Shown piece by piece: positions 7,671 to 48,140 of a DNA stretch of 64,000 nucleotides (its first letter is position 1; every line of letters begins with the position of its first letter). The notes beneath the pieces are model-generated. The model saw only the letters and a list, made by a program, of their open reading frames with translations, did not search any database and was not told where the DNA came from. Made by a program: the position numbers and the translations under genes. The DNA lies in assembly GCF_006345805.1 (NCBI RefSeq), contig NC_043005.1, positions 84,134,001 to 84,198,000 on the forward strand, in the 5' to 3' direction. This stretch comes from Octopus sinensis. Its lineage: Eukaryota.

Positions 7671-8342
7671 GGTGTTTTTTACGTGCCACCTGCACAGGTG
7701 CCAGACAGAGCTGGCGAATGGCCACGAACGGATGGTGCTTTTACGTGTCACCGGCACGGGGCCAGGCGATGCTGGCAACGGACATGAACGGATGGTGCTT
7801 TTACGTGCCACCGACACGGGGCCAGACAGAACTGGCAACCGGCCACGAACGGACGGTGCTTTTACGTGTCACCGGCACGGGGGCCAGCCGAGGCTGGCAA
7901 TGGATGCGAACGGATGGTGCTTTTACGTGCCACCGACACGGTTGCCAGACAGAGCTGGCAAACGGCCATGAGCGGACGGTGCTTTTACATGTCACCGGCA
8001 TGGGGGCCAGCCGAGGCTGGCAACGGACACGGACGGATGGTGCTTTTACGTGCCACCGACACGGGGCCAGACAGAGCTGGCAAACGGCCACGAACGGATG
8101 GTGCTTTTACGTGCCACCGACACGGGGCCAGACAGAGCTGGCAAATGGCCACAAACGGACGGTGCTTTTACGTGTCACCGGCATGGGGCCAGGCGAGGCT
8201 GGCAACGAACACGAACGGATGGTGCTTTTACGTGCCACCGACACGAGGCCAGGCAGAGCTGGCAAACGGCCATGAGCGAATGGTGCTTTTACGTATCACC
8301 GGCACGGGTGCCAGACGAGGCTGACAGCGGACACGAACAGAT
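7671..8342 (-). repeat. Tandem array of 11 x ~60-bp GC-rich units of two alternating types
   Basis: Units begin GGTGCTTTTACGTG at ~61-bp spacing; order X Y X Y X Y X X Y X Y. Confidence 0.9.
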
Positions 8343-8391
8343 GGGTCACTTAACCCCTGCTTTCTGATATATGATTTGATTTTGATTGTTC

Positions 8392-9690
8392 TCACTTGTC
8401 TTGCCGGGTCTTCTCACGCACAGCATACTTCCATAGGTCTCGGTCTCTGGTCATTTCCTTGGTGAGACCTAGAGTTCGAAGGTCGTGCTTCACCACCTCG
8501 ACCCAGGTTTTCCTGGGTCTACCTCTTCCACAGGTCCCCTCAACTGCCAGGGTGTGGCACTTTTTCACACACCTATCTTCATCCATTCTCACCACATGAC
8601 CATACCAGCGCAATCGTCTCTCTTGCACACAACATCTGATTCCTCTTAGGTCCAACTTTTCTCTCAAGGTACTTACACTCTGTCGACTATGAACACTGAC
8701 ATTACACATCCAACGGAGCATACTAGCTTCATTTCTCGCGAGCTTACGCATGTCCTCAGCAGTCACGGCCCATGTTTCACTGCCATGTAGCATGGCTGTT
8801 CGTACACATGCATCATACAGTCTGCCTTTTACTCTGAGCGAGAGGCCTTTAGTCACCAACAGAGGTAAGAGCTCCCTAAACTTTGCCCAGGCTATTCTTA
8901 CTCTAGCCGTTACACTTTCAGCACACCCACCCCCACTACTGACTTGGTCACCAAGATAACGGAAGCTATCAACTACTTCTAGTTTTTCCCCCTGGAAAGT
9001 GACGGAAGTTGTTTTCTGCAGATTTTCAGAGGTTAATGCTCCCGAGCATCTGCCACATACAAAAACCATCTTCCTAGTTAGCCTTCCTATGACATTGCTG
9101 CACCTCTTATGTGTCCATAGCTTACACTTGGTGCATCTTATAGAGTTTCTACCTACACCTTTTCTACAGATCGAGCAGGGCCATCTACCTGAAGGCGTTT
9201 GTGATTTGTCTACCTTCCTACTTATTAGGACTTTGGTTTTAGCTAGGTTGACTCTAAGGCCCTTCGATTCTAAACCATGCTTCCACACCTGAAACTTCTT
9301 CTCCAGTTCTGATAATGACTCAGCAATTAGAGCAAGGTCATCAGCATAGAGGAGCTCCCAGGGGCATCCTGTCTTGAATTCCTCCGTTATTGCCTGGAGG
9401 ACTATGATAAATAGGAGGGGGCTGAGGACTGAGCCTTGGTGGACCCCTACCTCTACCCGGAATTCTTCACTGTACTCATTTCCAACCCTCACCTTACTAG
9501 CAGCGTCCCTGTACATGGCTTGCACAGCTCTCACTAACCATTCTTCTATTCCTAGTTTCCTCATTGACCACCATATGAGGGATCGGGGGACCCTGTCGAA
9601 GGCTTTCTCCATGTCAACAAAAGCCAGGTACAGGGCCTTATCTTTGGCTAGGTATTTCTCCTGCAGCTGCCTTACCAGGAATATAGCATC
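8392..9690 (-). CDS. RTE-clade reverse transcriptase, C-terminal ~430 aa, uninterrupted, with inserted PHD finger
   Basis: Motifs AFVDMEKAFDRV, GVHQGSVLSPLLF, LLYADD, FRYLG, LHGSETW, RLRWYGHV, GRGRPRKTW. The N-terminal YIYIY in the ORF track is microsatellite. Confidence 0.95.
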   Translation of the reverse strand, partial: DAIFLVRQLQEKYLAKDKALYLAFVDMEKAFDRVPRSLIWWSMRKLGIEEWLVRAVQAMYRDAASKVRVGNEYSEEFRVEVGVHQGSVLSPLLFIIVLQAITEEFKTGCPWELLYADDLALIAESLSELEKKFQVWKHGLESKGLRVNLAKTKVLISRKVDKSQTPSGRWPCSICRKGVGRNSIRCTKCKLWTHKRCSNVIGRLTRKMVFVCGRCSGALTSENLQKTTSVTFQGEKLEVVDSFRYLGDQVSSGGGCAESVTARVRIAWAKFRELLPLLVTKGLSLRVKGRLYDACVRTAMLHGSETWAVTAEDMRKLARNEASMLRWMCNVSVHSRQSVSTLREKLDLRGIRCCVQERRLRWYGHVVRMDEDRCVKKCHTLAVEGTCGRGRPRKTWVEVVKHDLRTLGLTKEMTRDRDLWKYAVREKTRQDK

Positions 9691-10018
9691 ATATATATAT
9701 ATATATATATACACACACATGTACTCTTAACATAATTATTGTTCGGTAGAATCAATTTGATATGGTGTGTGGTAGGAACAATCCACCTGAACAACTATCG
9801 AAAAGAAAATGTTAAAACAATGACAATGAGTCTAATCAGTTTCAATTAAAGTTTTGTAATTAATTATAAATGCATAACTTTAATTAAATTTTTGTAGCTA
9901 TCTTTAAGCCACTCAGCATACGAATAAAAAGTTGCTTTAAGTAAAAATGCCGCCATATTTGATGGCACAAATTTCTGTGTGCATACATATATACTCATAC
10001 ATACATATGTATGTATGA

Positions 10019-14869: not shown

Positions 14870-15552
14870 AAGTTCTCAACCATTTTTTACATGAGATTGT
14901 TGCCAGAGCAACAAGCTGGCCTCCGTGCCCATGGCACATTAAAAACACCATTTGAGCATGATCGTTACCTGCGTCGCCTTACTAGCACTTGTGCTGGTGG
15001 CATGTGAAAAAAACATTCGAGCGAGGTCGTTGCCAGTACCGCTGGACTGGTTCCTGTGTAGGTGGCACATAGAAGGCACCATTTGAGCGTGGCCGTTGCC
15101 AGTACCGCCTGACTGGCCCTCGTGCTGCTGGCACGTAAAAGCACCCACTACATTCTTGGAGTGGTTGGTGTTAGGAAGGGCATCCAGCTGTAGAAACTGC
15201 TAGATCAGATTGGAATATGTTGAATAAATTGGTGCAGCCATCTGGTTTGCCAGACCTCAGTCAATCGTCCAACCCATGCTAGCATGGAAAGCAGACGTTA
15301 AATGATGATGATGATGATCTCCTTTGATCCCTATTTTACTTGGGATGGTAGCCATTTGATGTCTAAAAACCCCTATTATATTTTTATGATTAAATATTAT
15401 TAGGAATTGTTTAAATAATGATAAAATATTTGGTGTGTTGTAGAAGTAAAACCAGTTTATTGCAGATAAATTTTAACAAGAAAATCTTATATGGACCCGC
15501 AAGGATCACATCAATCCTCAAGGGGCATGTGGATACTGGTTGAGAACCACTG
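14870..15552. mobile_element. hAT-like MITE interrupted by an RTE 3'-UTR copy (~14895-15318, +)
   Basis: GTTCTCAACCATTTTT ... GGTTGAGAACCACTG; body matches 934-1165; insert has ~60-bp units and a (GAT)n tail. Confidence 0.7.
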
Positions 15553-15995
15553 GTGTAGGAAAAGAGGCAGTGCCCATGGCCTCTGTAGGCTCTCCTGGGC
15601 CAGCGAGATTGATGCCATTATAGATGGATAGGTTGTATTCCATCTAATGTGACTCCACTCAGAAGGCTGTCATATCATTTGACAGGAACACGGTATAAAG
15701 AAATACATGGAACAAGGTAGTAACTTTAAATGCCTATAATGTGGTCACGTATATACACATTATGTGGATACTGGTTGAGAACCACTGGTGTAGGAAAAGA
15801 GGCAGTGCCCATGGCCTCTGTAGGCTCTCCTGGGCCAGCGAGATTGATGCCATTATAGATGGATAGGTTGTATTCCATCTAATGTGACTCCACTCAGAAG
15901 GCTATCATATCATTTGACAGGAACACGGTATAAAGAAATACATGGAACAAGGTAGTAACTTTAAATGCCTATAATGTGGTCACGTATATACACAT
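15527..15995. repeat. Near-perfect ~235-bp tandem duplication
   Basis: 15527-15761 repeats at 15762-15995 with one visible substitution. Confidence 0.9.
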
Positions 15996-16984
15996 TGAAT
16001 GGTAAAATGGAAATGGCTTGATGCATGGAGGCCATAGTCTTCTCCTGTGTGTTAGCTCCTATCTGCTAATGGTGTGTGGTGTGAGAGAGCCAGTTAGGCT
16101 ACGTCTTCACTGTCTCGTGTCCCGATGCAGAAAAAGGTAGTTGTAAGGGCTTGTGCCAGAATCTCACACGCTAATGTTATCTAGCGATCTTGTTTTAAAA
16201 CTGCAGTCAAAGGGGTAACTGTGCCTACACCATTAATGTCCCTAGAGAATTTCTCTAAGCCAACATCAGCATGGAAGGGAACCCAGAAAGCCAACACTGC
16301 TTCTAGGAAGAAAGAACTGTGGGGGTTGGACACAACAAGGGTGATGGGAGGAAGAGAAACAAATGGAGTGGGGATGTTTGAGTGGGGGTGGCATGAGTCC
16401 ACCTGGTTCCAAGAAATAAGGGCCATGATAGTATTTTGGCCAGCCTATGAACTTTTCAGCTGAAACTCACGCACACACACACACACACACACATGTATGT
16501 ATGTAAATATGTATGTCATACACAACTTTGGCCATCCTACTAGAATATAAATAATTCTTCTCATTATGAGAATTCATCAAATGATAATTATCTGAATATA
16601 AAATAATTAAACAAGAGAAGAAACTACCCCTCCCCCCTCCCACTCCACTTACACACAACATAAATAACATCAATAACCAATTCAAGAACAACCACAAAAA
16701 TGTATCAAATTTGAATAATTAATAAGATGTAAGACGGGTTATTTTGATTAAGCATCGATTAGAGAAAACACCAACCATAAAAGCAAAAAAAAAATCTGAT
16801 GAGGTAAAAGATTAGGATGATGGGGTGGGGTGGAATAGGTTGCTTGCGGTGTTTGTGTTTTGGTCAAACCAGATCAGAGAGTCTTGTGGTCAAATAGCAT
16901 TTTAGTATACAAAACCACTGTGTCTGAGTTTCAGACATAGTATATCTAGGACTATATCATTTAATATGTTCCGCTGTTCCACTG

Positions 16985-29432: not shown

Positions 29433-29869
29433 GAACATACACACACAAATATATAACTGATATATATATATATATATATGCCAGGCCTGCCTGACTGGCT
29501 CCCCTGCCAGTGGTATGTAAAAAGCACCATCTGAATGTGGCCGATGCCAGTACCTCCTGACTGACTCCAGTGCTGGTGGCACATAAAAAGTATTATCTGA
29601 ATGTGATCGATGCCAGGCCCACCTGACTGGCTCCTGTGCCAGTGGCATGTAGAAAGAACCCACTACACTCTCGGAGTGGTTGGTGTTAGAAACTCATTAG
29701 GTTATTTTTGTATAATGTATATATATATATATAATATTTAATACCTTGCAATGCATGTTTCCACGAATCACATGATTTTGACATCAAACTTAATGTCCTT
29801 GGGATTTGTACAGTATAGTTCATATTATCCACCCCTAACGTTACCGTAAATGAAATTAAAAGATATTAT

Positions 29870-40680: not shown

Positions 40681-42757
40681 TCATCATCATCATCATCATC
40701 ATCATTTAACGTCCGCTTTCCATGCTAGCATGGGTTGGACGGTTCAACTGGGGTCTGGGGAGCCCGAAAGCTGCACCAGTCCAGTCAGATCTGGCAGTGT
40801 TTCTACGCTGGATGCCCTTCCTAACGCCAACCACTCCGAGATTGTAGTGGGTGATTTTTGTGCCACCGACACAGGTGCCAGACGAGGCTGACAAACGGCC
40901 ACGCTCGGATGGTGTTTTTATGTGCCACCGACACAGGTGCCAGACGAGGCTGGCAGACGGCCACGCTCGGATGGTGTTTTTATGTGCCACCGACACAGGT
41001 GCCAGACGAGGCTGGCAGACGGCCACGCTCGGATGGTGTTTTTATGTGCCACCGACACAGGTGCCAGACGAGGCTGGCAGACGGCCACGCTCGGATGGTG
41101 TTTTTATGTGCCACCGACACAGGTGCCAGATGAGGCTGGCAAACGGCCACGATCGGATGGTGCTTGTTACGTGCCCATAGCACGGAGGCCAGTCGATGCG
41201 GTACTGGCTACGGCCACGTTCGGATGGTTTTCTTATGTGCCACGTGCCACCGGCACTGGTACCACAAAGATACAAATCCATTGATGTTCATCTATTTTGA
41301 TTTGGTTTTGATTTGATTTGATTTTCACTTGCCTCAACAGGTCTTCACAAGTGTCACAAGAAGGAAGGTATGCACAGGTGGACTGACTACGTCCCAGGTA
41401 GGGGCCATGGTTATGGCCTGACTAGTCTTGCCGGGTCTTCGGATGGTGTTTTTATGTGCCACCGACACAGGTGCTAGATGAGGCTGGCGACGGCCACGAT
41501 CGGATGGTGTTTGTCATGTGCCCACCGCACTGACTATGCACTGATGGATTTCTTGTGTGCCACAGGCACTGGTACCACAAGATACAAATTCCATTGATGT
41601 TCATCTATTTTGTCTATTTTGATTTGATTTGATTTGATTTTCACTTGCCTCAACCGTCTTCACAAGTTCACAAGAAGGAAGGAAGGTATGCACAGGTGGA
41701 CTGACTAGTCTTGCTGGGTCTTCGGAAGGTGTTTTTATGTGCCACCGACACAGGTGCCAGATGAGGCTGGCGAACGGCCATGATCGGATGGTGTTTGTTA
41801 CGTGCCCACAGCACGGAGGCCGGCCGATGCGGAACTGGCTACGGCCACGTTCGGATGGTTCTCATGTGTGCCACCGGCACTGGTACCACAAAGTGTGTGC
41901 CACCGGCACTGGTACCACAAAGATACAGATTCCATTGATGTTCATCTATTTTGATTTGTTTTGATTTGATTTTCACTTGCCTCAACAGGTCTTCACAAGT
42001 GTCACAAGAAGGAAGGTATGCACAGGTGGACTGACTACGTCCCAGGTAGGGGCCATGGGTTATGGCCTGACTAGTCTTGCCGGGTCTTCGGATGGTGTTT
42101 TTATGTGCCACCGACACAGGTGCTAGATGAGGCTGGCGAACGGCCACGATCGGATGGCCAGTGATGCGGTACTGAGTGTGCCACCGGCACTGGTACCACA
42201 AGCGGTACTGACTACGGCCACGTTCGGATGGATTCTTGTGTGCCACCGGCACTGGTACCACAAGCGGTACTGACTACGGCCACGTTCGGATGGATTCTTG
42301 TGTGCCACTGGCACTGGTACCACAAGGATACAAATTCCATTGATGTTCATCTATTTTGATTTGTTTTGATTTGATTTGATTTTCACTTGCCTCAGCAGGT
42401 CTTCACAAGTCGGAAGGTATGTACAGGTGGACTGACTACGTCCCAGGTAGGGCCCATGGGTTATGACCTGACTAGTCTTGCCGGGTCTTCGGATGGTGTT
42501 TTTATGTGCCACCATGTTCCCACAGCACGGAGGCCAGTCGATGCGGTACTGGCTACGGCCACGTTCGGATGGTTTTCTTGTGTGCCACAGGCACTGGTAC
42601 CACAAAGATACAAATTCCATTGATGTTCATCTATTTTGATTGATTTTCACTTGCCTCAGCAGGTCTTCACAAGTGTCACAAGAAGGAAGGTATGCACAGG
42701 TGGATCGACTACGTCCCAGGTAGGGGCCACGGGATATGGCCTGACTAGTCCTGCCGA
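40681..42757 (-). repeat. Composite tandem array of RTE 3'-UTR modules
   Basis: (GAT)n tail, terminal domain, five near-identical 61-bp units, then five ~280-400-bp modules each containing TTGATGTTCATCTATTTTGA, TTCACTTGCCTCA and CTAGTCTTGCCGGGTCTTC-like motifs. Confidence 0.85.
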
Positions 42758-43627: not shown

Positions 43628-44769
43628 GGATAGATACTTAACTAGATAGACAGATGGATAGCTATGTAGATAGACATATATTTAGATAGATATAGATGGA
43701 TAGATTGAGAGAGATCTATAGACTGAGAAATATAAAAGTGCAAGATGTAGAACGTAGAGATTTATAACAGTTGTATAACACGTGTGTGAAGGCATGCATG
43801 CACACACACACATAATTGTATAGTGTGGAAGTTTGCTTCCCAACTATATAGATTCAGGTTCAGTCCCACTGCATGGCATCTTGGGCAAGTGTCTTCTCAA
43901 TCAAAACCTTACGAGTGGATTTAGTAGGAGGAAACTGAAAGAAGCCTGTCATATACGAATATATACACATATATAAATGGTAAAGACCCCCTTTGATCAT
44001 AAGTGACCATGAGTTTGCACCAAGAGATTTACCCTCCAAGGCACTAGACTGAACGAGGTTGTTTTATGGAAGATCAGCAGTTGCCCATGCATTTGCATGT
44101 GAAGGCATGCATACTCACACACACACAAAAGTAATTTACGCATATTTTCGAAGGATTCCATTAGTGAATTTCCTACACCGAATCAACTTAGAATACTTCA
44201 TGGCTTACCATTTTAAAGTAAACCGAAAGAAACTCACATCATTTAACGAATATCAAATGGAAAAAATGAGAGATTTTTGTGTTGTGGTGCATGCTAGGCG
44301 TTGGATGTAGATATTCTTAAGTGAATTTAGATGTATGGAACTGTAGACATCATGGAAGAACATTATAACAATTGTTTAACACTTTCTAACAAAGATATAT
44401 GCCATATTCACTTCCCATCAGTCCATTTGACTTTTCCTTTCGGTTTTTCTTCCTTTGTTATTTAAAGACAGTCAATATCGCAAAAAACATATAAACCAAT
44501 ATTTACATATAACTACATATATATATATATATATATATATTCAATGATTGCATATATATTGATTATATATGCCATCATGATCATCATCAAAATCATCATC
44601 AGCATTTAATATCTGTTTTCCCTGCTAGAATGGGCTGCATGGCTTAGCTGGAGCAGATGAATCATCTGCTCTGTACGGTTTGAAATGGTTTCTACTGATG
44701 GATGTCCTTCCTAATGCCAACCGGGCTGTACAGGGTGTGTGTACACACACATACACACACACACATGTA

Positions 44770-44823
<54 letters not shown>

Positions 44824-44890
44824 TATATTTGTAAAAAATGAAGTTCGAAAATGCTGCTGTATTATACAATTTTTAATTTTTATATATACA

Positions 44891-44935
44891 TTATAACATG
44901 TTTCAGTTCCTGAAATGAACCTTATCAAAAAAAGT
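44891..44935 (-). ncRNA. Decayed minimal hammerhead ribozyme in PLE terminal region
   Basis: TTGATAA-GGTTC-ATTTCAG-GAACT-GAAAC-AT-GTT: core differs from CTGATGA/CGAAAC by transitions; palindromic ACATGT stem III. Confidence 0.5.
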
Positions 44936-45244
44936 TATATATAAAAAGAGACAGCTCATGCCGTCAAACACAAGAAATTCATTTATAATACACAACGGAG
45001 TCAGACATCTTAGAGTTCATGTATAGTTGATATATAGTTCATGTATAGTTGATATATAGTTTGAAGTATATGTTCAAAGTGTTCGATGCAGTGGCCCACG
45101 GTGGCGATACGTATTCAATACAAAAAACAGATCAAAGTGGTGGAAAGCGGTCAATACAGAAGATTGATGTTTCCGAAAGAGCGAGGAATTCATTTTTGCC
45201 TTAAGCAATTGTGATGACCCATGGTGGAAGTTCGCTGGGTGGTT

Positions 45245-45642
45245 CTAGTGAGTTTTTGTGAAATGCTCGGTTTTATAATGCCTGTTAGGTGGTCAATCTA
45301 GCGTAGCGTGACGTCATCAATGTTTTGACCAATCGTTTCGTTAGGTGGCTTTAACCAAGTGGAACGGGACGTCATCATTATTTTGACCAATCGCTGCATT
45401 ATAACTCCCTCTTGTTTGTTTCCTGTCTTGACCAGTCGCTTCGTTAGTCAAGCATAGCGGGACGTCATCCAGATTCTGCCCAATCACAACTTATAGCTAC
45501 ATTAGATCTGCCCCCTGTCTGTACTTGTTAGGTGACTATTCAAGCAGAAAAGGACGTCATCAATATTCTGACTAATGACTGTCCCCTGTTTGTATCCTGT
45601 CCATTCTAGCAGAGCTAGACGTCATCAACTTGTTGACCAATC
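45245..45642 (-). promoter_or_regulatory. Putative Pol II promoter: 5 x (inverted CCAAT + CRE-like) modules, TATA box, initiator
   Basis: GACGTCATC-N6-(T/C)TGACCAATC-like motifs at 45310, 45368, 45461, 45553 and 45618; TATAAAA at 45277-45271; TCACT with A at 45249. Confidence 0.6.
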
Positions 45643-45808
45643 AGAATCGGGTCTGACCCTTAGCTGTATCGTATGTATCAGGGTCAGATTGCACGAAAGA
45701 ATTTTTTTCCTTTTTTACTAAGGCATATTTCCGTCAGAGTGAGTGTCTGTTTGAAGTAGCGGCCGTGGTGAAATTTGGTTCTCCTTTTCGGAGGACTTAT
45801 CTTTTGTT

Positions 45809-47380
45809 TTAGTATTCCTGGCCCAGGGTGTTTAAACTTGGTCTAAATTTTTTTATGAAATATAGTTCTTTTTTGGCGTTGTGTGAAGGTTGCGTTGTCA
45901 CTGAATTTATAGAGCGGGTTAGTTGTAAATTTCGGATTTACATTTCCAGCACATCTATCTATGTGTCCGCTGACCGGTATTTTGCGTAATCAGGGTTTCT
46001 AATTGTGATTTATGCACCGCCATCCTGTTACGTAAGCTATTTTTTGTATGCCCTATATACTGCCTATTGCAGCCTGTGCATGTTATGACATAAATTAAGT
46101 TTTCTGATGCGCAGGTGAAGTTTGTTCTAATGGTGAACTGGTGGCCTTGTTCCAGTATAAATTCTGATCCTTCTTTCAAGATGACACAGATTCCGCAGTT
46201 GGGCCTTCCACATTTTCTAACTGCTGGTTTGTGGTGATGTTGAGTGCAGTGTGCTTGGGTAAAATCCTTTTCAAGGATTTTGGTTGCCGTTTACTTTTAA
46301 TGATGGTGTGTGTTTCGAGGATCCGGTTCATCTTTGGGTCTCCCTTTAGTAGAGCTGTGCTTTGTAGTATGGTGTTGAAGGCCTCATTGTTGAGTGGGTT
46401 GTGTGTAGAGATGTAGGGAAGGGTTTTTAATTGTTCTTTCTTTTTTGGTTTTGTTTGTCTCAGGTCTTCTATACTTAATTTAAGTACCCGTTGGATTGCA
46501 CTGTCTATTAGGGGCTGTGGATAGTTTCTATTTGTGAGTGTGGTTCTAAGTTCCTGGAGACGTGTGTGTCGGGTGTTTGTGTCTGATATTATGGTGCAAA
46601 TCCTTCTAGCTAAACAAAAAGGGACATTCATTCTAGTGTGTCGTGGGTGGCATGAATCAAAGGGTAGGTACTGTTTAGAGTCTGTCGGTTTATAGTAGAT
46701 ATCTGTCTCTATTTTGTTGCCGGTTTTCTTAATGAGGATGTCTAAAAATGGTAATTCTTTTTCGTTGTGGTCCATCGTGAATTGTATATTGTCATTTATT
46801 CCATTTAATAGAATTTTAAATTCCTCAAGTTTCTCTATGCCTTTGTCCCAGATGATGAAACAGTCATCGAGGTATCTTTTCCAGTTGTTATGGATATAGG
46901 TGGCGAAGGTGTTTCCATATTTCTCGAGTGTCATCCGGTATAGTATTTTCTCGAGGTATCCCATCACTAGGTTGGCAAAAGATGGTGCAGTACGCGTGCC
47001 CATCGCTGTTCCCGATCTTTGCCTGTAGAAAGCATTGTCAAAATAAAATAATTGTTCTCTAAAATGAATCTAAGTCCTTCTATTATAAGGTCTTTGTTTA
47101 TGCGAGTTGGGAGTTCAAAGGGGTAGTTATTCAGCCAGAAGGTGATTGCTTCTATTCCTAGGTTGTGAGGGATGTTAGAATAAAGATTAACTACGTCGAA
47201 TGATACTAGAAGGGTTTTCTCATTGACTGTTTTAGGGAGGTGGTTGAGCATATCTATATCGTCTCTTACGTAGCTTTTGATGTGTTTTAGGAAAGGTTAA
47301 GAAGTGTGTCTAAGAAATTGCTGAGGCGGTGAGTTTCACATGCTGGCCCTGCTATTATCGGTCTTAGTTTAAGATCATTT

Positions 47381-47382
<2 letters not shown>
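45809..47382 (-). pseudogene. Penelope-type reverse transcriptase-GIY-YIG endonuclease, frameshifted
   Basis: LRPIIAG, SFDVVNLYSNIP, MGT..APSFANLVM, KRYLDDCF, LPFLDI, YYKPTD, NLIYVITC..C...YIGHT...LRNRM..H, terminal PSLN. Confidence 0.92.
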
Positions 47383-47435
<53 letters not shown>

Positions 47436-47465
47436 GTATGTATGCATATATATATGTATATATAA

Positions 47466-47683
47466 TTTCTTTTATTTGTTTCAGTCATATGGCTGTGGCC
47501 ATGCTGAGAGTACTACCTTTAGTCAAACAAGTCGACCCCAGAACTTATTCTTTGTAAGCCTAGTACCTATTCTATCAGTCTCTTTGCCGAACCACTAAGT
47601 TATGGGGGCATAAACACACCAGCATCAGTTGTCAAGCAATGGTATGGGGACAAATACAGACACACAAACATACACACACACAC

Positions 47684-47723
<40 letters not shown>

Positions 47724-48140
47724 CATATATATATATGTATGTATGCATATATATATATATATATGTATATATATATTCTTTTATTTGTTTCAGTCATATG
47801 GCTGTGGCCATGCTGGAGTACTACCTTTAGTCAAACAAGTCGACCCCAGAACTTATTCTTTGTAAGCCTAGTACCTATTCTATCAGTCTCTTTGCCGAAC
47901 CACTAAGTTATGGGGGCATAAACACACCAGCATCAGTTGTCAAGCAATGGTATGGGGACAAATACAGACACACAAACATACACACACACACATTATATAT
48001 ATATATATATATATACTCACAAGGCTTTGGTTGGCCCAAGGCTATAGTAGAAGACACTTGCCCAAGCTGTCACAGAGTGGGACTGAACCCAGAACCATGT
48101 AGTTGGTAAGCAAGCTACTTACCACACAGCCAGCCATGCC
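47466..48140 (-). mobile_element. SINE family A with ~310-bp internal tandem duplication
   Basis: 3' half present twice (from 47466 and 47776), nearly identical. Confidence 0.85.

Follow-up and report, generated by a model that had tools for sequence, protein, structure and literature searches.

The window, that is, the whole stretch of 64,000 nucleotides analysed here, is from Octopus sinensis (NC_043005.1, positions 84,134,001-84,198,000 of the forward strand; GCF_006345805.1) and contains a 5'-truncated Penelope-like element (PLE), the features of which are collected in Table 1. All 40 scored genomic matches to the 3' 1072 bp of the element cover that stretch at 97-100%, and the family is therefore regarded as young. 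The element is an EN+ PLE, in which a single ORF of the intact relatives carries the reverse transcriptase (RT) together with a GIY-YIG domain at its C-terminus; L065 and L090, two such relatives, match both RVT_1 and GIY-YIG. The copy in the window is defective, with a frameshifted ORF and a splice donor that reads GC, the one such case among 29 donor sites read. Two traits of the Neptune type are present, namely microsatellite targets and the CX2-5CxxC linker, which the accessible text of PMC8557442 ties to Neptune and Nematis PLEs; the likeness is one of motifs and targets.

Table 1. Features of the element in the window, in element-sense order (positions are those of the window).
Feature	Position	Strand	Basis or remark
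5'-truncated young PLE	44829..47382	-	C-terminal GIY-YIG, Neptune-like; lies between (TA)n tracts
RT-thumb-linker-GIY-YIG ORF remnant, frameshifted	45809..47382	-	three-frame translation; stop codon 45811-45809
CGRPNCGIC, the CX2-5CxxC linker of Neptune/Nematis-type PLEs	46186..46212	-	motif definition in PMC8557442 (accessible text)
Remnant of the inverted family C block, diverged	45642..45757	-	homology via L090 as intermediate
Unit 5 (most distal)	45603..45642	-	ATTGG-N12-TGACGTCT
Unit 4	45538..45577	-	CCAAT box degenerate, CTAAT
Unit 3	45446..45485	-	CRE CpG altered in 12/38 young copies, 11 with one common variant
Unit 2	45353..45392	-	pattern match, alignment
Unit 1 (TATA-proximal)	45295..45334	-	CRE 39 bp upstream of the TATA box
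TATAAAA box (predicted)	45271..45277	-	sequence; every later subfamily aligned has a TATA-like site
Predicted first exon	45200..45250	-	start placed ~30 nt below the TATA; 3' end from junctions at the equivalent base
Splice donor AAG/GT, reading AAG/GC here	45194..45202	-	other copies use this donor
Minimal hammerhead motif, U3-A8 core variant	44895..44928	-	alignment

In the sense of the element, the order is ORF stop (45809), an array of repeated units, TATAAAA, a short exon, the donor (45200), the hammerhead and the 3' end. The initial annotation placed the array next to an RT-endonuclease gene; the array is situated inside the retroelement rather than beside it. In the tandem copies L069 and L097, the region comprising the array and the TATA directly precedes the ATG of the next ORF, and this region is therefore a pseudo-LTR (pLTR). 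Partial tandems or inverted 5'-truncated copies are observed at L069, L097, L093, L063 and L066. Head-to-head pairs of pLTR-only arms, in which two arrays stand back to back, occur at L089, L160, L161 and L164. The U3-A8 core variant of the hammerhead (PMC4209133, accessible text) is found, as a sequence motif only, in all seven aligned copies, and an Rfam search of 44700-46000 returned no relevant family, the hammerhead motif included. Two alternative 3' ends ~35 nt apart (L069:5340 and 5375; ends of L083, L085, L086, L090 and L092) fit the 30-40-bp tail of PLEs.

The array consists of five units in which a CRE is followed by a CCAAT box. GACGTCA-N12-CYAAT occurs five times in the window, at 45310, 45368, 45461, 45553 and 45618, and in none of 100 shuffles, which confirms the five-copy repeat described in the initial annotation together with its intervals of 58, 93, 92 and 65. 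The sequence that was said to be invariant, GACGTCATC, is indeed identical in all five units. The gap of 12 nt, described as fixed between GACGTCA and CCAAT, is found in every unit, with the qualification that unit 4 has CTAAT, and the YYAG-N9 portion of the proposed motif is present as sequence inherited from the ancestral unit. In the alignment of the five units, 13 of 14 core columns are invariant as against 8 of the 46 others (the core was defined after seeing the alignment), and a run of nine invariant columns has a permutation p of 0.0008. Outside the core, the units average 48% identity. The full palindrome TGACGTCA (45309-45316) is confined to unit 1 among the five. In MHC class II promoters, X2 is followed on the same strand, ~19-20 bp on, by an inverted CCAAT box (ATTGG). 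Like X-X2-Y, the array pairs a CRE-like site with a CCAAT box at constant spacing, but the orientation of its CCAAT is opposite, the gap is different, and neither an S/W box nor a known CIITA-type context accompanies it. The loose likeness to that enhanceosome thus fails on orientation and spacing, as the CRE of the array is followed by CCAAT after 12 nt.

The unit pattern has 1719 matches in the genome versus 3 for a control pattern, and the number of units per copy ranges from 1 to 8. In 34 hammerhead-anchored regions, TGACGT is located within 40 nt at 90 of 123 ATTGG sites, and the gap is 12 in 86 of these 90 pairs, most of the loci having been picked with a pattern that contains that gap. 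A looser pattern applied genome-wide, all families included, gives 714 matches at N12 versus 46 at N11. Comparison of the proximal units of the young family with those of L090 and L152 reveals that 93% of core positions but 22-24% of flank positions are common. The young family and the others are 95-99% alike at the ORF ends but 66-73% alike in the stretch from CRE to donor. A second PLE family (50-54% aa), though amplified, shows no array or such motifs in 30 loci.

Survival of the CpG in every copy, previously taken as a sign of selection, does not bear that weight. The CpGs of the CREs are altered in 16 of 190 copy-sites versus 46 of 2197 elsewhere, with 11 of the 16 being one common variant of unit 3, and the whole element is CpG-rich, with an observed/expected ratio of 0.68-0.97 across it versus 0.40 for the window. 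The CRE of unit 3 has been lost in a successful sublineage, the proximal CCAAT is missing in L091 and L092, and in old copies of a distant family, termed family C, the motifs decay like the flanks.

Family C was encountered among 20 loci picked from the N12 matches for unusual spacers and classified by family: nine belong to family C, two to distant relatives of it, five to older subfamilies of the window lineage, and four have no PLE link. The last four (L182-L185) are TGACGTCA-N12-CCAATC matches that may be due to chance or to host promoters. The proteins of family C and of the window family are 46-50% identical in four copies and 40-42% in a decayed fifth; the ORF DNA of the two is identical at 514 of 781 positions. 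Family C has its own tandem pLTR-ORF copy. Its order is ORF end, two TGACGTCA-N12-CCAAT units, an ACGTCA-N12-CGAAT unit, TATA and hammerhead, and the module thus has the opposite orientation to that of the window lineage. The CGAAT unit is found in 16 of 24 copies and the sense TATA in 18 of 24, while CCAAT at that unit is found in 0 of 24. Two distant relatives, L175 (~70% aa to C) and L180, keep TGACGTCA-N12-CCAATC with other spacers.

In L170, an older-subfamily copy of the window lineage, positions -1 to +297 of C are present on the opposite strand and 251 of 277 positions are identical (90.6%). The palindromic CRE marks the start of the ~300-bp block, which a direct repeat of 54-63 bp borders. 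Since older relatives carry this block upside down and 91% identical to the end repeat of C, we infer that the window lineage likely captured it, inverted, from the distant family C. The transfer is likely to have proceeded from C into the window lineage because the sense orientation is shared by every relative of C. Of the sister family H (63-66% aa), all four hammerhead-bearing copies match the 3' end of the lineage above shuffles and 0 of these 4 match the family C block; blastn of 19 family H loci gave none that match either pLTR. That the array probably goes back to a different PLE family, from which it was captured upside down, had escaped the initial annotation.

Judged from their sequences, the subfamilies of the window lineage form a ladder of capture, TATA gain, conversion of CGAAT to CCAAT, and amplification. 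Old copies have CGAAT/AAACGTCA distal units and the captured proximal unit, with one CCAAT unit. Younger copies have CCAAT/RGACGTCA distal units, and the A-type copies, including that of the window, possess converted units only, with TGACGTCA in the proximal one. A sense TATA is absent from L170 and L172, is weak and ~100 bp below the CRE in L181, and lies 33-47 bp below the CRE in later copies. The antisense strand still bears the TATA of C in 6 of 7 old copies, and all 9 A-type copies surveyed lack it; it is likewise gone from the 45642..45757 remnant in the window copy. The order of the unit inventories is recovered in an ORF tree with family H as root, a single ladder from L181 to the young copies, with some nodes weak, with L170 left out (<200 nt) and with the position of L172 ignored, its endonuclease match being a separate insertion.

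A history can be proposed from these stages, in which the block of family C would have been inserted in reverse, with the palindromic CRE at its start and the 54-63-bp direct repeat on its flanks. A sense TATA would then have been gained and its distance from the CRE shortened from ~100 to 33-47 bp. The ACGTCA-N12-CGAAT unit of the block would have been duplicated and converted to GACGTCA-N12-CCAAT, after which a converted unit that gained the full palindrome would have replaced the captured proximal unit, and the antisense TATA of C would have been lost. In the place nearest the TATA, the composite site apparently arose anew out of a degenerate unit, and this is the main argument for selection. 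Selection on the CRE-CCAAT geometry, proposed at the outset, thus finds support in this apparent CGAAT-to-CCAAT re-creation and in the 12-nt gap kept where the flanks are largely replaced. The same evolutionary argument suggests that the gap matters in either orientation.

RNA was studied in contigs of seven runs guessed to be RNA and one that is probably DNA, none of them being recorded as RNA. In three of the seven (X5, X11 and X12, from two studies), contigs exit the element at the donor; in the other four, no contig end at the donor is found among the ends listed. The continuation in X12 has a unique match at C16:20065925, directly after TTTTGCAG, in an exon of 93 nt situated 17.5 kb downstream of the solo copy L028. 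The continuation in X5 and X11 has a unique match on C4, 7 nt inside the exon following TTCTTCAG, and this acceptor is 4.0 kb downstream of the solo copy L026. Because the contigs continue at canonical acceptors on C4 and C16, the donor is considered to be used. L026 and L028 are 5'-truncated and have no upstream pLTR. The 93-nt exon has no Pfam match. A short solo pLTR of the present assembly, L147:171-656, is located ~250 bp above the C16 acceptor, and a deletion has removed its donor.

One X11 contig spans the intron unspliced, and among the junctions listed for the eight runs, none links the donor with the ORF of the element itself. For the spliceosomal intron that EN+ PLEs have in the pLTR, no splice acceptor belonging to the element was found; two weak acceptor-like sites are located inside the array. 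The contigs extend over the array in addition to the exon, a pattern that read-through would also give, and no transcription start is seen in the contig data. A contig of 48 nt ending 30 nt below the TATA was considered as a mark of the start site and rejected, as a variant bubble explains it. The Kozak-like ATG of the exon was likewise rejected as a start codon, being missing from other subfamilies and followed by a stop within 4 codons in both chimeric junctions. The loose X12 end at L069:5787, tried as an upstream host exon, maps to another contig at a joint without GT. An X12 contig joins L165 (C5:90861252-90861281) to the exon of the element at a non-canonical joint, which is possibly a polymorphic insertion or a chimera.

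We consider it probable, with good confidence, that the array is the upstream part of a Pol II promoter in the pLTR, derived from a block likely captured in inverted form from a distant PLE family. In short, a captured, inverted and re-optimised promoter is likely. NF-Y, NF-YA domains of which are encoded in the genome, would bind the CCAAT boxes, with a CREB/ATF-type bZIP dimer occupying the CRE at a distance of 12 nt. On this model, the CCAAT of the TATA-proximal unit would fall near -84 and its full CRE near -65, the start being expected ~30 nt below the TATA. The distal units would reinforce the promoter, and transcripts would enter the next ORF in tandem copies or flanking DNA from solo copies. 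The earlier proposal of a retroelement promoter with selected CRE and CCAAT geometry agrees with the position upstream of the ORF in tandems, the TATA and the used donor. Its cAMP inducibility, for which the sequence offers one full CRE 39 bp above the TATA, is possible but doubtful. The distal units appear dispensable or degenerate, as unit 3 lost its CRE and old subfamilies have one CCAAT unit.

The main alternative is a passive minisatellite, in which the block was captured by accident, the unit was amplified by slippage or template switching, conservation reflects recent descent, and the RNAs are host read-through. The variable unit number, the lack of protection of the motifs among genomic copies, the contigs that cover the array and show no start site, and the acceptor-like sites in the array all agree with it. 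This is in contrast to the concentration of invariant columns in the core and to the stepwise appearance of a full CRE, CCAAT and TATA at the promoter-proximal position. Splice-in at the acceptor-like sites of the array is absent among the junctions listed, and selection is not expected to show in dead copies. This alternative is accordingly held to be unlikely, with roughly one chance in eight left to it by our own reckoning.

Less probable again is a bidirectional or antisense promoter, according to which the block keeps its original direction and yields antisense RNA into the ORF or outward from head-to-head copies. It accounts for the antisense TATA of old copies and for the common head-to-head arrays (L089, L160, L161 and L069), yet that TATA has disappeared from the A-type copies, while a sense TATA has been gained and a sense donor is used. 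A role at the RNA level, with the repeats forming hairpins, decayed hammerheads or RT binding sites, is the least probable of the three and in our view highly improbable. Each unit does contain a GUCA...UGAU inverted repeat and a hammerhead-core-like UGAUGA stretch, but the folding z-score is -0.74, none of four predicted pairs is compensatory, and the block is on opposite strands in families C and A/B. A hammerhead or structured-RNA origin of the units was rejected on the z-score and the pairs.

The promoter reading can be compared with known systems. In the accessible text of Schostak et al. (2008, PMC2377424), the pLTR promoter of Drosophila virilis Penelope is internal and TATA-less, with its essential elements lying downstream of the start, and is capable of driving genes located downstream. 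The element described here differs by its predicted TATA, an upstream multi-unit CRE/CCAAT array and an identifiable donor family, and its promoter would be built on another plan than the PLE promoter analysed in Drosophila. Its later subfamilies retain a TATA-like box, and its start is a predicted one. Neptune-clade EN+ PLEs, as far as the accessible text of Craig et al. (2021, PMC8557442) goes, share with our element (TA)n targets, partial tandems, inverted copies, a pLTR hammerhead, the C-terminal GIY-YIG, the CX2-5CxxC linker and a 30-40-bp tail; that text describes neither promoter exchange nor an upstream promoter of modular make-up.

Recruitment of new 5' UTRs is known from LINE-1 lineages, and tandem promoter monomers from mouse L1 (PMC5381506, accessible text). 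The PLE resembles them in that a single evolving lineage swaps its promoter while the ORF barely changes. LINE-1 promoters, however, are internal and 5', whereas the PLE module is situated in the 3' pLTR upstream of the TATA, with its source and intermediates still in the genome. The ERV-9/LTR12 enhancer has 14 CCAAT- and GATA-containing repeats (PMC3730095, accessible text) and is likewise a retroelement promoter region in which NF-Y sites are repeated in tandem and have a partner site at a set position, although it belongs to an LTR retrovirus, and GATA or AP-1, differently spaced, takes the place of the CRE. Human NF-Y partners (E box, TRE, PBX/PREP) are placed 10-12 bp 5' of CCAAT (accessible text of PMC3730095 and PMC7793273); the CRE of the array is on the same side but farther away, ~18-19 bp centre to centre. 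The accessible parts of PMC11167929 and PMC13282606 hold no promoter detail, and the literature searched, mostly at the level of abstracts, holds no PLE promoter with a CCAAT/CRE array and no inter-family promoter capture.

Promoter replacement is known from LINE-1, but with the donor family, junctions and intermediate stages all in one genome it becomes directly testable, and several hundred proximal units (714 matches, all families) could act as ready-made promoters splicing into neighbouring DNA. A broader and quite tentative proposal, which we would sooner doubt than accept, is that PLE families separated by deep divergence exchange promoters as portable cassettes that work in either orientation, that a full fossil series in this genome records the stepwise rebuilding of one, an acquired and inverted CRE/CCAAT block, into a signal-inducible TATA promoter, and that hundreds of young solo copies seed cAMP- or stress-responsive spliced transcripts into host DNA.

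Other repeats were noted in the window. A frame of 444 aa at 8392-9726 (-), with a match to RVT_1 (E 7e-23) and a weak PHD-like match, is a fragment of another retroelement and adjoins a 61-bp tandem array. A tandem repeat family of 61-66 bp recurs at 7677-8344, 15014-15145, 29478-29647 and 40850-42326. A direct duplication of 308 bp (96%) at 47383-48015 adjoins the truncated 5' end of the PLE, and a tandem duplication of 235 bp with 99% identity is located at 15527-15996.
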